A DNA stretch of 45,103 nucleotides from an uncultured Lachnospiraceae bacterium (GTDB taxonomy: Bacteria; Bacillota; Clostridia; Lachnospirales; Lachnospiraceae). The position numbers and the translations under genes are program-made. This document shows, piece by piece, positions 29,699 to 34,416 of this stretch (position 1 is the first letter of the stretch; the number at the start of each line of letters is the position of its first letter). A model generated the notes under the pieces. The model made no database searches. It worked only from the letters and a program-made list of their open reading frames with translations, and had not been told where the DNA came from. The DNA lies in assembly GCA_949012915.1 (NCBI GenBank), contig CARLBU010000004.1, positions 79,314 to 124,416 of the forward strand, read 5' to 3'.

Positions 29699-30583
29699 AT
29701 GCAAAACAAACAATATGGTGAGAAATTGGCGACTGGAGGAATATTAGTGGCTTTAGCTTTTATTTTTAGCTATTTAGAGTCTCTGTTTCCTGTGCTTATC
29801 CCTATACCCGGAATAAAACTTGGATTGGCAAATCTGGTTACAGTAATTGCTCTCTATACAATAGGAGAAAAAGCCGCTTTTTTTATTTCTATTCTTCGGA
29901 TCTTACTGAGCGGTTTTGCATTTAGCGGGATATTTCCTATGATTTATGGGTTATCTGGAGGAATCCTTAGTTTTTTAGGAATGGTTTTTTTAAAGCAAAA
30001 AAAATGCTGCAGCCTATATGGCATTAGTATGGCAGGAGGAGCACTGCACAATATCGGACAGATAGGAATAGCAGCCATTGTACTAAAAAGCAGCAGTATT
30101 TTTACTTATTTGGGAATTTTGCTGCCCGCAGGTGTTCTGACAGGAGGAGTCATTGGAGTAATTGCTTCTAAGGTTTTGCAAAGTTTAAAAGGGCAGCACA
30201 ATCAGCAAAAGATAGGGATATTAGACGGAACAATAGGGCTTGGCTTTGTCTTAATAGGAGGACTGGTACTTGGCGGAGTCGAACTTGCAAAGAGAGAGGG
30301 AGAGGGTGTTATAGTTTATAAAGATGCATCTTTTTATCAAGAATATCCGCTTTCTCAGGACGGGGTTTATCGGCTCGATTGGGGAAATGGAAACTATACG
30401 ATATTAACAATACAGAATAAAACAGCCTTTATCAGTGAATCCTCTTGTCCCGATTTACTCTGTGTAAAAGAACGGGCAATCTCTAGAACACAAGAAAGAA
30501 TCGTTTGTCTGCCTAATCGAGTAGAAGTTTTTATTTCTACTGCAAAAGAAGGGGAAAATGGACTAGATGCAATAGTGGAATAA
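29699..30583 (+). CDS. Gx-transporter-family (Hpre_diP_synt_I-like) membrane protein fused to a C-terminal NusG_II (DUF1312) domain
   Basis: The N-terminus has ~5 TM helices (..GGILVALAFIFSYLESLFP..). The C-terminus (..DGVYRLDWGNGNYTILTIQNKTAFISESSCPDLLCVKERAISRTQERIVCLPNRVEVFI..) has the NusG domain-II-like pattern. Confidence 0.55.
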   Translation: MQNKQYGEKLATGGILVALAFIFSYLESLFPVLIPIPGIKLGLANLVTVIALYTIGEKAAFFISILRILLSGFAFSGIFPMIYGLSGGILSFLGMVFLKQKKCCSLYGISMAGGALHNIGQIGIAAIVLKSSSIFTYLGILLPAGVLTGGVIGVIASKVLQSLKGQHNQQKIGILDGTIGLGFVLIGGLVLGGVELAKREGEGVIVYKDASFYQEYPLSQDGVYRLDWGNGNYTILTIQNKTAFISESSCPDLLCVKERAISRTQERIVCLPNRVEVFISTAKEGENGLDAIVE

Positions 30584-30656
30584 AAAAAGCTTGCTATTTA
30601 AAAAAAATAGGTATAAAGTGGTGAAGAATGATACAGACGAAAGAAGGACAAACGAG

Positions 30657-31982
30657 ATGAAAGATTTAACAGAGGGAAAACCGCTTTATGTATTGTGGAA
30701 TTTTTCAATACCAATGTTTATCAGTGTAATTTTTCAGCAGCTTTATAATATTGCGGACAGCGTAATTGCTGGAAAATTTGCAGGAGAGGATGCACTGGCA
30801 GCAGTAGGAGCTTCCTATCCCATTACGATGATCTTTATGGCGATTGCTATTGGAAGCAATATTGGATGTGCCGTTGTCATTTCTCAGCTATATGGAGCAA
30901 AGCAGTATGGAATGATGAAAACCGCCATCTTTACCACTTTAGTTGCTTCAGCAGGTTTATCTATATTGTTAATGGGAGCAGGTTTGATGGGGACACGCAG
31001 TTTAATGGAGATGATCCGCACACCAAGCAATATTTTTGAAGAGGGTGCCGTCTATCTTAGAATTTACATTGCTGGATTTTTATTTTTATATCTTTATAAT
31101 GTAGGAACTGGTATTTTTACTTCTCTTGGAGATTCTAAAACACCGCTTTACTTTTTAATCGGCTCTTCCCTTGGAAATATTGTACTAGATTATCTATTTG
31201 TTGCTGTTTTTCAATGGGGCGTACCCGGAGTAGCTTGGGCAACTTTTTTAGCACAGGGAATTGCCTGTGTATTTGCCCTATGGACATTGAATAAAAAAAT
31301 AAGAAACATTCACGGAGAAGGAACGGTACTGTTTTCATGGAATATGTTAAAAAAAATTGGTGCCATTGCGGTTCCAAGTATTTTACAGCAGAGTTTTGTT
31401 TCGATTGGAAATATTTTTATTCAAAGTTTGATTAATGGATTTGGATCTTCTGTAATAGCTGGCTATTCTGCTGCTATTAAATTAAATACATTTGCGATTA
31501 CCAGTTTTACTACATTGGGAAATGGAATTTCTAGTTTTACGGCACAAAATCTTGGGGCGGGAAAATTAAAACGAATAAAAGAAGGACTGCGTGCGGGAAT
31601 GGGGATCGGTGTGTTGGCGGCACTGCCTTTTCTGGTTTGTTTTTTTGGATTTGGAGGGCAGATGATGGGGCTTTTTTTAAAGGATGAAAGTGCACAGGCG
31701 ATGAAAACAGGTGTGGAGTTTTTGCGGATTGTCTCTCCTTTTTATCTGGTAATTTCTATTAAATTAGCGGCTGACGGAGTACTTCGGGGAACCGGACAGA
31801 TGCGGATGTTTATGTTGTCTACTTTTACAGATTTGATTCTTCGGGTGATTCTCGCTTATCTGTTTGCTTATCTTGGCGGAGTAACGGCAGTATGGCTGTC
31901 TTGGCCGATTGGGTGGACAATTGCTATGGTGCTTTCTGGAGGATTTGCTTGGAAAGTAATTCGAGAATATTCTTTTTTATAA
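30657..31982 (+). CDS. MATE-family efflux transporter
   Basis: 12 TM; the typical MATE N-terminus is MKDLTEGKPLYVLWNFSIPMFISVIFQQLYNIADSVIAGKF. The first ATG in the ORF is at 30591; start 30657 is chosen because it gives the typical MATE N-terminus. Confidence 0.85.
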   Translation: MKDLTEGKPLYVLWNFSIPMFISVIFQQLYNIADSVIAGKFAGEDALAAVGASYPITMIFMAIAIGSNIGCAVVISQLYGAKQYGMMKTAIFTTLVASAGLSILLMGAGLMGTRSLMEMIRTPSNIFEEGAVYLRIYIAGFLFLYLYNVGTGIFTSLGDSKTPLYFLIGSSLGNIVLDYLFVAVFQWGVPGVAWATFLAQGIACVFALWTLNKKIRNIHGEGTVLFSWNMLKKIGAIAVPSILQQSFVSIGNIFIQSLINGFGSSVIAGYSAAIKLNTFAITSFTTLGNGISSFTAQNLGAGKLKRIKEGLRAGMGIGVLAALPFLVCFFGFGGQMMGLFLKDESAQAMKTGVEFLRIVSPFYLVISIKLAADGVLRGTGQMRMFMLSTFTDLILRVILAYLFAYLGGVTAVWLSWPIGWTIAMVLSGGFAWKVIREYSFL

Positions 31983-32010
31983 TAAAATTAAAAAATTTTT
32001 AGTTTTAAGA

Positions 32011-32038
32011 TTGACATATTGTAAAAATTAGGTATACT
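32011..32038 (+). promoter_or_regulatory. Sigma-A-type promoter TTGACA-16-TATACT for the antiporter leader
   Basis: Consensus hexamers about 225 nt upstream of the antiporter start codon. Confidence 0.5.
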
Positions 32039-32047
32039 TAAGATAGT

Positions 32048-32175
32048 TGAAAGGGAGTAGTTATCATTGTACAGTCAACATCCCCCGATTTGTTATCGTG
32101 GCTGTACAACTTTCTGAGAGATAGAAAGGGACAAGACTTTTGGCATATTATATGCAAAAGTTTTGTCCCTTTTTG
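32048..32175 (+). ncRNA. Structured 5' leader ending in an intrinsic terminator. Candidate metal-sensing riboswitch, possibly yybP-ykoY-like.
   Basis: AAAGGGAGTAG at the leader 5' end resembles the conserved GGGGAGUAG motif of the yybP-ykoY riboswitch, as far as I recall it. A P1-like stem TTGTACAG...CTGTACAA is present. The terminator GGGACAAGACTTTTG-loop-CAAAAGTTTTGTCCC plus TTTTTG lies at 32128-32175, followed by a cation antiporter gene. Confidence 0.35.
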
Positions 32176-32262
32176 TGGTTGCAGAATAATCGCTGCTTTC
32201 ATAACACAAAATAGGAATAGTAAATCTGGTAAAAATTCAAAGGAAAAAAGGAGGAAGAAAAA

Positions 32263-33201
32263 ATGGAAGTATTATTGCAGATGGGATTGTTGGTATTGGG
32301 ATTTGTAATGTTAATTAAAGGGGCTGACTGGTTTGTAGACGGGGTATCTGGAATTGCGGAGAAATTCGGAATTCCGCAGTTAGTAATTGGGCTTACGATT
32401 GTAGCGATGGGAACAAGTGCACCGGAGGCGGCAGTTAGTATTACCGCAGCTATGAAGGGAAATGCCGGAATTACAATTGGAAATGTGGTAGGAAGCAATA
32501 TTATGAATGTATTAGTGATTCTTGGAATTACTTCTGTTATTACAGCAATTGCGGTGCAGAAATCTACGATTCGGATTGAACTGCCTTTTATGATTGGAGT
32601 TTCGGCTGTACTTTTGGTCTGCGGAATGAGCGGAGGTATGATTACCCGTGTGGAAGGGGTTTTGCTTTGGGGATTTTTTCTTGTCTATCTTGGATATTTG
32701 TTTCAGGCTGCAAAGCAGGGAATGGCAGAGCAGGAGTCAGAAGAAGAAAAACAGGAGCGGATGGGGAAGCTGCTTCTTACCGGTTTGATTGGAATGGTGC
32801 TGATTATTGTGGGGAGTGATGTGACAGTGGATGCGGCTAATCGGCTTGCAGCTATTTTTGGAATGAGTGAGCGGTTAATTGGGCTTACGATTGTGGCTTT
32901 TGGAACTTCACTTCCAGAATTGGTTACTTCGGTGATTGCGGCACGGAAGGGAAAGGCAGATATTGCAGTTGGAAATATTGTGGGGAGCAATATTTTTAAT
33001 ATTTTATTTGTAGTCGGGACTACGGCTTTGATTGTACCAGTGCCGTTTGCTTTGGAATTTTTGGTGGATGGCGTTGTTGCTATATTGGCTGGGATTTTGC
33101 TTTGGGTGTGTGTATTTCGAAAAATGCGGCTGGAGCGGTTTGGAGGAGTAGTGATGTTAGTTGGATATTTGGTTTATTTTGGGTATTTGCTGGTGAAATA
33201 G
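32263..33201 (+). CDS. Ca2+/Na+ antiporter (CaCA / YrbG family)
   Basis: Two alpha-repeat motifs, GTSAPEAAVS and GTSLPELVTS, in ~10 TM helices. Confidence 0.85.
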   Translation: MEVLLQMGLLVLGFVMLIKGADWFVDGVSGIAEKFGIPQLVIGLTIVAMGTSAPEAAVSITAAMKGNAGITIGNVVGSNIMNVLVILGITSVITAIAVQKSTIRIELPFMIGVSAVLLVCGMSGGMITRVEGVLLWGFFLVYLGYLFQAAKQGMAEQESEEEKQERMGKLLLTGLIGMVLIIVGSDVTVDAANRLAAIFGMSERLIGLTIVAFGTSLPELVTSVIAARKGKADIAVGNIVGSNIFNILFVVGTTALIVPVPFALEFLVDGVVAILAGILLWVCVFRKMRLERFGGVVMLVGYLVYFGYLLVK

Positions 33202-33287
33202 GGGACATGTTGAAAGGGAGGGGAGCGGAGAGGAAGTTTTATGTTTTATGGCTGGAATAAAGAGTGGGGTGTGTCAAGACGGACGCT

Positions 33288-33527
33288 AGAGTTGGGAAGC
33301 AATATCTTTCTGTTGTTCCGCTCTACGGAAAGTAAGAAAATCTAAGGCTTCTGCATTTACCTGTATCCAACCGGACGGACCGGGGTGCAATTCGCCCGTA
33401 CAACGGGCTAAACACACCCCTTTTTTTGCCATTCGAGAATGGCAAAAAATCCTAGAGATCGACAGAAGCCTAAGATTTTCTAACTTTCCTCCGAAGTCAC
33501 AACAGAAAGATATTGCTTCCCAACTCT
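33288..33527. repeat. Family-2 repeat, copy 2. Same terminator-bearing core as copy 1, with different, perfectly inverted 29-bp arms.
   Basis: Arms agagttgggaagcaatatctttctgtt and aacagaaagatattgcttcccaactct are exact reverse complements and unrelated to the copy-1 arms. The core is >90% identical to 7275-7465. Confidence 0.8.
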
Positions 33528-33647
33528 GGCTGTTTTCTGCTGCTTGTAATATTTTGTATCTTGCCTGTTCCTCCTGTGCTTTTTGCTGGCAGGGGCAGAG
33601 GCAGTGGGGCATAAAATAGTTGAAACCGCCGAACCTCGGCACAATGG

Positions 33648-33752
33648 TCTGGCGGCTTAGAAGCGGGGACTTCCTTGATGAGGTTATGAGCAAGTAGCGA
33701 AGCGGATTGCGAATATCCGATTTGACTTTCGTATCTTTCCGTATTCGCAATC
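33648..33752 (+). repeat. Family-3 repeat, copy 2 (3' half of the hairpin only, plus the module and a downstream hairpin)
   Basis: tggcggcttagaagcggggacttccttg-atg-aggttatgagcaagtagcgaagcggattgcgaatatccgatttgac, followed by ..tattcgcaatc, which pairs with gattgcgaata. Confidence 0.7.
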
Positions 33753-33813
33753 TTGTTTTATTTCCGTAAACAGGGCAATGTACCCATTCAAATCATTCTA
33801 TACCAATATCCCT

Positions 33814-34416
33814 CTAATTTTCTAAACTTTTAAAAAAGTTTACGGCAAGTAAACCTATCATGCAGACAAATATTCCCGTTGGGAGTAATACAAGAAAAAC
33901 GGCATTGCTAAATTTATCAAACAATATTCCGTAAACCATTTGCCCTAACGGTTGGGCACACATAGAAATAGTAGCGATATATGCCATCACTTTTCCCGTT
34001 AAATGGTTAGGGGTTCTTTGCTGTATCATAGAGAGAGCAAAAATAGAAAAAATGCAAGCGGCAATCTGCATACCACAAAACGAAATAATATTGACAATGT
34101 ATCGTGTAATTGCTGTTGTTGGAAGAAGAAAAATAATGCCCGCCGGAAAAAGAAATACTCCAAGAACAACAACTACGATTGATAGTTTTCCGGGTTTCAT
34201 TTTCTCTGTTAATAGTCCGGCTGCAATGCTCCCAATGATTGCAGCTAATCCCAACGCACTTTCTACAAAACCATAATATTCAGCATTTAAGCTCAGTACA
34301 TTCCGCACAATATAAGGCAGACTTACTATAGCTGTTCCCATTACAAAAAAACTAACCGATGTGCTTAAAAGCAACATTTTTAAAATACAGGACTGTTCTT
34401 TGCCTATAAATCGCAT
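33814..34416 (-). CDS. MFS-like membrane protein, 6-TM C-terminal half. The upstream frame stays open ~255 nt with no ATG/GTG/TTG start.
   Basis: A 200-aa, 6-TM ORF. The same frame continues upstream through another TM-like stretch (..LYAGVLCFFVTAVFECFI..) to a TGA near 34670 without an in-frame start codon. It may be a truncated or decayed transporter gene. Confidence 0.4.
   Translation of the reverse strand: MRFIGKEQSCILKMLLLSTSVSFFVMGTAIVSLPYIVRNVLSLNAEYYGFVESALGLAAIIGSIAAGLLTEKMKPGKLSIVVVVLGVFLFPAGIIFLLPTTAITRYIVNIISFCGMQIAACIFSIFALSMIQQRTPNHLTGKVMAYIATISMCAQPLGQMVYGILFDKFSNAVFLVLLPTGIFVCMIGLLAVNFFKSLEN

Follow-up and report, generated by a model that had tools for sequence, protein, structure and literature searches.

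A probable yybP-ykoY (Mn2+) riboswitch lacking P2 in the leader of a CaCA antiporter gene from a Lachnospiraceae bacterium

Described yybP-ykoY riboswitches and the leader compared with them

The systems closest to the leader described in this work are riboswitches of the yybP-ykoY (Mn2+) family. Those of E. coli mntP and X. oryzae are canonical four-way junctions in which P2 stands over P1.2 and the switch helix P1.1 closes the structure; L1 reads GGAGUAG...(G/A)AGA, and L3 has 7 nt (ACAUACU) and ends in U. In the solved structures of the family, an L1 adenosine makes an A-minor contact to P3.1, the invariant L3 adenosine (A48 in the X. oryzae ACAUACU) contacts Mn2+ via its N7, and stabilisation of P1.1 by the metal-driven docking of L1 and L3 blocks strand invasion by the terminator (PMC6754395). 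The L1 adenosine is extruded, and a conserved G-C receptor pair stands over L3 with its adenosine. The 3' strand of L1 ends in an AGA known to be invariant in the family (PMC6649816). In X. oryzae and L. lactis, gene expression is controlled through an intrinsic terminator, while mntP uses sequestration of the RBS.

Not all members have a four-way junction. E. coli alx is an accepted member without P2, having instead a short single-stranded segment in a three-way junction (10.1101/2024.12.14.628514; PMC12934788); the loop that replaces P2 is closed by a capping pair, L3 is CGUCAUUAC, and a translational, pH-coupled platform controls a TerC-family gene in an enterobacterial host. S. pneumoniae mgtA is an accepted member without P4, whose intrinsic terminator overlaps P1.1; it encodes a PII ATPase linked to Ca2+ and Mn2+, which is induced by Mn2+ under the control of the riboswitch, and its RNA also binds Ca2+ (PMC6649816). 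As for B. pertussis BP3410, a yybP-ykoY riboswitch precedes a gene of the calcium:cation antiporter family, whose CaCA protein exports Mn despite its annotation, and transcription stops inside the riboswitch region when Mn is lacking (PMC8546581). P2 and the four-way junction are therefore not universal in the family (alx has no P2, mgtA no P4).

The window, i.e. the whole stretch of 45,103 nucleotides that was analysed, contains such a candidate. With a probability that we put at about 85%, the leader of its CaCA antiporter gene acts as a yybP-ykoY (Mn2+) riboswitch of the transcriptional ON type and forms a three-way junction without P2. The first-pass annotation had raised a possible Mn2+/yybP-ykoY-type riboswitch, and the core motifs, the covariation of the helices and an end-to-end alignment with mntP all support it. 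On this assignment the element is a real riboswitch that brings together a known family, a known trimmed architecture and a gene family with which such riboswitches had previously been associated. The novelty is modest: it consists of a terminator-coupled group without P2 and with an mntP-type L3, widespread in gut Clostridia and undetected by the current Rfam model, and of a P4-less form that, as judged by eye, exists alongside this group at orthologous genes.

The window element shares with mntP and X. oryzae the L1 sequence, the succession of P1.1, P1.2, P3.1, P3.2 and P4 with P1.1 as the switch helix, and an L3 (CAACAUAC) with its metal-contacting adenosine and flanking C-G and A-U pairs. 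Unlike them, it has a 4-nt linker in place of P2 and therefore a three-way junction, its L3 has 8 nt and ends in CCC, it would regulate a CaCA antiporter, and it sits below the detection of RF00080 in Rfam 15. Its platform is an intrinsic terminator, like those of X. oryzae and L. lactis. With alx it shares the short single-stranded segment at P2 and the fact of being missed by RF00080 (Rfam 15). As its L3 is of the mntP type and its platform is an intrinsic terminator, the P2-less architecture alone is common to it and the alx-type pH/Mn2+ subclass. A capping pair like that of alx was considered for the linker and dropped, being supported in 41 of 70 sequences, whereas a competing terminal pair of P3.1 forms in 58 of the 70.

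Like mgtA, the window element belongs to a Firmicute, forms a three-way junction, has an intrinsic terminator that overlaps P1.1, and precedes a transporter gene of a kind linked to Ca2+ and Mn2+. However, the trimming is opposite, as it keeps P4 and lacks P2, and its L3 is of the mntP type and not of the L. lactis/mgtA type (CGUCAAU/CGUCAGUAC). With BP3410 it has in common the riboswitch family and a calcium:cation antiporter-family gene; the two proteins were compared only via NCX_Mj, which is the nearest solved homologue of each (PMC8546581). Unlike the window element, that of Bordetella is detected by Rfam (E=8.5e-15, PMC8546581) and presumably canonical, and its host is a proteobacterium.

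The locus and its structured leader

The promoter ahead of the leader, announced as a consensus promoter by the first-pass annotation, is near-consensus, with 11 of 12 matches, and is the top site of a 2-kb scan (Table 1). It lies 29 nt 3' of the end of a MatE gene (30591-31982). Transcription is predicted to start at about 32045, 1-2 nt 5' of the aptamer, and in L001, L037, L016, L024 and L065 promoter-like hexamers, identified by eye, are spaced from the aptamer as they are in the window. The resulting leader has a length of about 218 nt up to the ATG at 32263, close to the 220 nt first estimated, and comprises the structured RNA (32046-32144), then the intrinsic terminator (32128-32174), before the Na_Ca_ex (CaCA) gene. 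The antiporter matches PF01699 (Na_Ca_ex, 2.8e-70) and TIGR00367 (calcium/sodium antiporter, 269 bits), and NCX_Mj is its nearest solved relative (2.7e-42). The leader folds at -53 kcal/mol against -30 kcal/mol in shuffles (z = -6.1), and none of 200 shuffles equalled it. Further upstream, just 5' of the MatE gene, an ORF (29699-30583, plus strand) combines a PF07456 heptaprenyl diphosphate synthase component I-like membrane domain with a PF07009 NusG domain II.

Table 1. Positions in the window of the predicted promoter, of the elements of the proposed aptamer and terminator, and of the gene they precede.
Feature	Position	Strand	Sequence, pairing or description	Evidence
Sigma-70-type promoter	32011-32038	+	-35 TTGACA 32011-32016, 16-nt spacer, -10 TATACT 32033-32038	Motif scan
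P1.1, 5' strand (switch helix)	32046-32053	+	GUUGAAAG, pairs with 32137-32144	Covariation, folding
L1, 5' strand	32054-32059	+	GGAGUA	Invariant in 17 genome loci
P1.2, 5' strand	32060-32062	+	GUU, pairs with GAC 32130-32132	95-100% paired, one-sided variation only
Linker at canonical P2 position	32063-32066	+	AUCA, single-stranded, 4 nt	Alignments A1, A2, A4
P3.1, 5' strand	32067-32077	+	UUGUACAGUCA, pairs with 32099-32109	Covariation, folding
L3, putative metal-binding loop	32078-32085	+	ACAUCCCC	Alignment to RF00080 consensus and E. coli mntP CAACAUACU
P3.2 hairpin	32086-32098	+	CGAU-UUGUU-AUCG	4/4 pairs compensatory
P3.1, 3' strand	32099-32109	+	UGGCUGUACAA	Covariation, folding
P4 hairpin	32110-32128	+	CUUUCU-GAGAGAU-AGAAAG	6/6 pairs compensatory, 90% paired
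P1.2, 3' strand	32130-32132	+	GAC	
L1, 3' strand	32133-32136	+	AAGA	AGA is the family's invariant trinucleotide
P1.1, 3' strand	32137-32144	+	CUUUUGGC, common to terminator 5' arm	
Intrinsic terminator	32128-32174	+	Stem of ~20 bp, 32128-32148 / 32150-32169; U5 tract 32170-32174	Folding, overlap in relatives
RBS	32250-32254	+	GGAGG	
CaCA/YrbG-type cation antiporter gene, 312 aa	32263-33201	+	ATG to stop (included); putatively regulated gene	PF01699, TIGR00367

Folded alone, the aptamer has a minimum free energy of -24.5 kcal/mol and adopts essentially the proposed structure. The conserved-looking motif AAAGGGAGTAG picked out in the first pass (32050-32060) is made up of the end of the P1.1 5' strand (AAAG), the GGAGUA of L1 and the first base of P1.2, and the long-range stem noted between TTGTACAG (32067-32074) and CTGTACAA (32102-32109) is P3.1, which in the window extends to an 11-bp helix (32067-32077 / 32099-32109). 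A single second small hairpin had been described; a hairpin is indeed there, but the number was wrong, as we found two, at 32086-32098 and 32110-32128.

The loops carry the resemblance to known members. The window's CA-ACAUCCCC (32076-32085) aligns to the CA-ACAUACU of mntP, and L3 CAACAUAC matches the loop of E. coli mntP as well as GUCAACAUACU, the consensus of RF00080. Written with its flanking pair as CA-ACAU-MC, the loop is identical to that consensus, to mntP and to the X. oryzae ACA48UACU (PMC6754395). Judging from the aligned positions, A32056 would be the counterpart of the L1 adenosine engaged in the A-minor contact, and A32080 the equivalent of the metal-contacting A48. The fifth position of L3 (32082) is a C in the window and an A in most relatives.

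Relatives, covariation and detection by Rfam

We retrieved 80 loci encoding close relatives of the antiporter. In 19 of these, nhmmer with the leader as query gave significant matches directly 5' of the orthologous gene, and a motif scan found a GGAGTAG-containing leader in 38 of the 80. Of the 19 loci with an nhmmer match, 17 have the window's architecture, and GGAGUA is invariant in these 17 genome loci, which were retrieved via the gene, independently of the motif. In addition, metagenome contigs were scanned with the exact pattern GGGAGTAGTT-N10-16-CAACATMCCC, which yielded at least 120 further loci, with at least 85 distinct aptamers among the matches listed. The origin of this pattern in CaCA leaders biases the metagenome sample.

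In the MAFFT-based alignment of the 17 genome sequences, 97.7% of the cells are paired, while sliding the partners lowers this to 40-52%; compensatory changes occur in 12 pairs. A covariance model, R1, was built from these leaders only, with no canonical member included, and it aligned 95 hits, 70 of them distinct. Among the 70 sequences, 96.3% of the cells are paired (39-48% when slid) and 23 of 31 pairs are compensatory, pairing measures none of which was reached in any of 500 shuffles. The R1 alignment leans toward the model to which it was fitted, whereas the MAFFT-based result on 17 sequences does not.

Looking at individual helices in the 70 sequences, P1.1 is paired in 98% of the cells, with compensatory changes in 5 of its 8 pairs, and P3.1 likewise in 98%, with such changes in 8 of its 10 pairs; C39-G116 and A40-U115 (alignment columns) do not vary. 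These C-G and A-U pairs, at the inner end of P3.1, sit directly over L3, and they are invariant in relatives, as are the GGAGUA and the AGA of L1. Every conserved core element of the family is present, and those that the search pattern left free do not vary among relatives. The AGA (columns A221, G222 and A223) is invariant in all 70 sequences and lies outside the search pattern. The left leg, P3.1-P3.2 and P4, shows covariation in each of its helices, and the length of P3.2 differs between relatives. In place of the P2 of the canonical junction, relatives have a linker of 4-6 nt of variable sequence (alignments A1, A2 and A4). Since the same leader, with strong covariation, recurs directly 5' of orthologous genes, with 17 genome loci and at least 85 distinct metagenome sequences, the feature is far more than chance would produce.

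R1 also provides a link to the canonical members. Run on the E. coli mntP aptamer with filters off, it aligned from end to end (L081:5462-5575, 13.5 bits, E=0.003 in 301 nt), and P2 appeared as a 16-nt insertion located exactly at the window's linker. The score of 13.5 bits is modest. On alx, R1 aligned the L1/P1.1 frame only (7 bits), which was too weak to be used as evidence.

Rfam 15 itself is silent on the leader. At gathering scores the whole window gave no matches, the element thus not reaching the 45-bit RF00080 cut-off. The search proposed in the first pass, with RF00080 and the NiCo, Na+ (DUF1646) and Li+ (nhaA-I/II) models, to which M-box was added, returned nothing at E<=10 on 31950-32300 with permissive filters, nor did any riboswitch, T-box or leader family of any kind on that segment; the only matches to the leader at E<=10 were spurious, with miRNA-like and plastid hairpins matching the terminator. 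An rli60 match (23 bits for a cut-off of 60, E=0.69) was judged to be due to chance. On 19 homologous loci, Rfam reported only tRNAs and two cobalamin riboswitches, located elsewhere in the loci.

Our controls indicate how this silence should be read. The experimentally validated riboswitch of E. coli mntP (L081:5462-5558) scores 41.6 bits with RF00080 of Rfam 15, short of the 45-bit cut-off, and the validated P2-less alx (L082:2290-2600) goes unreported by RF00080 at E<=10, as does a related P4-less leader by Rfam 15. The printed RF00080 consensus (Rfam 15) extends no further than P4 and omits the 3' strands of both L1 and P1.1. As the model misses alx and underscores mntP, the absence of a match is uninformative rather than negative, and so is the outcome of the proposed search, which the first-pass annotation had listed among the results that would count against its reading.

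The lack of a yybP-ykoY match in Rfam might also suggest that the leader works as a protein-, tRNA- or leader-peptide-dependent attenuator, or that it belongs to another class of metal riboswitch (NiCo, Na+/DUF1646, Li+/nhaA-I or M-box), and ORFs of 54 and 72 aa do overlap it (32038-32202, minus strand; 32090-32308, plus strand). We rejected a coding reading of these ORFs, as conservation tracks base pairs and not codons. Given that the substitutions show covariation of the RNA type, that no other riboswitch, T-box or leader family is found at E<=10 and that the core motifs are specifically those of yybP-ykoY, we regard this explanation as extremely unlikely.

Another form of trimming was noticed by eye among the same genes. 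About 21 orthologues of the window's antiporter carry a yybP-ykoY leader in which P2 is present and P4 absent, with an L3 of the L. lactis/mgtA type (CGUCAAU/CGUCAGUAC), some 100-270 nt 5' of the antiporter gene. The loci in question are L002, L007, L014, L020, L031, L034, L038, L041, L043, L048-L050, L054, L056, L061 and L066, as well as L069-L071, L075, L078 and L079. Several of these leaders have a UNAAA-like junction such as that described for S. pneumoniae mgtA; they give weak matches to R1 and are missed by Rfam.

Elsewhere in the window, a TwoAYGGAY RNA (RF01731) was identified at 33320-33496 on the minus strand (68.8 bits for a cut-off of 43, E=4.9e-11). It surfaced only in E-value mode, which means that the default filters of the gathering mode can lose true matches. 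This RNA occupies a gap that appears to be non-coding, bounded by the antiporter gene and by a 200-aa ORF (33814-34416, minus strand) whose match to MFS_1 is confined to the C-terminal half (profile positions 203-343 of 347). With about 600 nt of non-coding DNA downstream of it (33202-33813), this ORF looks like a truncated or disrupted transporter gene beside the TwoAYGGAY RNA.

The proposed switch, its ligand and the regulated gene

The terminator is a strong structure (-32.3 kcal/mol alone), even though a simple terminator scan did not list the 32128-32174 hairpin. Its 5' arm (32128-32148) includes the 3' strands of P1.2, L1 and P1.1, and the aptamer and the terminator are mutually exclusive because nucleotides 32130-32144 are common to both; in particular, 32137-32144 pairs either with 32046-32053 or inside the terminator stem. 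An alternative antiterminator pairing, the absence of which would have counted against a riboswitch in the first-pass annotation, is therefore present. In the minimum free energy structure of the full-length leader, the terminator form prevails (-50.8 kcal/mol, against -23.5 for the aptamer form). Among 79 distinct relatives, 73 have a terminator that overlaps the closing strand of the aptamer in this way; of the six that do not, three have strong hairpins in a slightly shifted register. Such an overlap of the P1.2, L1 and P1.1 strands with the terminator implies, by the logic of the predicted structures, a metal-dependent ON switch that would act by antitermination.

The switch would operate as follows, its docking step being modelled on the solved structures of the family. 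Transcription would begin at about 32045, and the nascent RNA would fold into two legs, one formed by P3.1-L3-P3.2 stacked on P4 and the other by P1.2-L1-P1.1. When a divalent metal, most likely Mn2+, is high in the cytoplasm, it would bind between the GGAGUA/AAGA of L1 and the ACAUCCCC of L3, with the N7 of A32080 as a ligand. The legs would then dock, thereby stabilising the switch helix P1.1 (32046-32053 / 32137-32144). In this docked state, 32130-32144 would be kept from the terminator, so that RNA polymerase would read through and the CaCA antiporter would be made. Without metal, the thermodynamically dominant terminator (32128-32174) would form, and transcription would end after about 130 nt.

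Alternatively, there might be no sensor at all, the unit being an independent sRNA gene, or else the hairpin might end the transcript of the upstream MATE gene while the antiporter has its own promoter downstream. A promoter-to-terminator unit of about 130 nt is indeed of sRNA-like size, and the B. pertussis element was first annotated as an sRNA, BprK (PMC8546581). A weak promoter-like site (TTGTCC...AATAAT, 32163-32190, 9/12) is present 3' of the main promoter, and the U-tract ends 88 nt short of the ATG at 32263: the terminator is as strong as the first-pass annotation stated, but it does not stand immediately before the gene. However, the promoter follows the stop codon of the MATE gene (31982) and precedes the hairpin, and the element accompanies the downstream transporter gene, not the upstream one, across differing neighbourhoods. 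Furthermore, the conserved positions coincide with the metal-binding loops of a known riboswitch, and a terminator laid over the closing helix of the aptamer, which 73 of 79 relatives have, is what characterises an expression platform. A leader devoid of sensing function thus appears very unlikely to us, and a transcriptional ON riboswitch remains our preferred reading.

The genes found 3' of the aptamers are of a restricted set. For the 85 distinct metagenomic aptamers among the matches listed, they include 40 CaCA genes and 20 genes for P-type ATPases with Cation_ATPase_N/C domains. Of the 62 that have a BLAST-assigned gene among these matches, 60 precede a CaCA or PII-type ATPase gene, and none precedes MntP, TerC or UPF0016. 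The remaining metagenomic aptamers are at contig ends or precede ORFs without BLAST assignment, with a few CitMHS and Na_Pi_cotrans genes according to Pfam. MntP, TerC and UPF0016 are the classical Mn-specific exporters, while CaCA antiporters and PII-type ATPases are the two classical bacterial Ca2+ efflux systems. Two distinct metagenomic aptamers are followed at about 420 nt by an OAD_beta gene (PF03977, beta subunit of a Na+-transporting decarboxylase), at L147:6839-6945 (minus strand) and also in L149, L155, L178, L181 and L198, an unexpected partner for a Mn2+ riboswitch.

As in other members of the family, the ligand is most likely Mn2+, and by the same analogy the antiporter is probably a Mn2+ exporter, perhaps also a Ca2+ exporter, because of two precedents: in B. 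pertussis, Mn is exported by a CaCA protein whose gene follows a yybP-ykoY riboswitch (PMC8546581), and the S. pneumoniae PII ATPase MgtA is controlled by a riboswitch that responds to Mn2+ (PMC6649816). The sequence comparisons show the motifs, the helices with their covariation, the strand common to aptamer and terminator and the gene associations; which metal is bound, how the legs dock and what the antiporter carries are proposed from such related systems.

It is tempting to consider that the same scaffold, with the same antitermination mechanism, has been tuned in this P2-less clostridial subclass, with its 8-nt L3 ACAUACCC, to Ca2+ or to both Ca2+ and Mn2+, and that it controls calcium efflux. 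The gene partners listed above, 60 of 62 CaCA or PII-type ATPases and no MntP, TerC or UPF0016 among the matches listed, would fit this proposal. L3 also exceeds that of characterised Mn2+ sensors by one nucleotide and has an invariant CCC end, the CCC being fixed by the search pattern. In addition, the mgtA member of S. pneumoniae binds Ca2+ more tightly than Mn2+ (PMC6649816), and, according to Sherlock and Breaker, certain yybP variants are probably sensors of other divalent ions (PMC7266159). Nevertheless, the adenosine that offers a soft N7 ligand, typical of Mn2+ selection, is kept, like all other core positions, and the effective activator of mgtA is Mn2+, not Ca2+, both in vitro and in vivo (PMC6649816). 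The CaCA protein controlled by this class of riboswitch in B. pertussis is a Mn exporter (PMC8546581), and the count of gene partners comes from a sample found with a pattern derived from CaCA leaders. On balance, we consider tuning to Ca2+ rather unlikely, and Mn2+ the better candidate. Our literature search for a described calcium riboswitch or a 'yybP variant' paper found none.

Our analysis thus points to a control element and a probable substrate for a gene that automatic annotation would name a calcium/sodium antiporter, and whose product is more likely a manganese exporter, possibly also of calcium, induced by excess metal. Entire groups of P2-less and P4-less members that are common in gut Clostridia escape the current Rfam Mn2+ model, and riboswitch censuses of these bacteria therefore undercount them. 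One orthologous gene associated with two three-way-junction trimmings of a single aptamer constitutes a natural experiment on which helices are dispensable. Finally, the restricted regulon of CaCA and PII-type ATPase genes bears on a suggestion of long standing, namely that the metal sensed by some yybP variants is not Mn2+. If this were true here, a Ca2+-responsive or dual Ca2+/Mn2+ subclass would represent the first natural calcium riboswitch.
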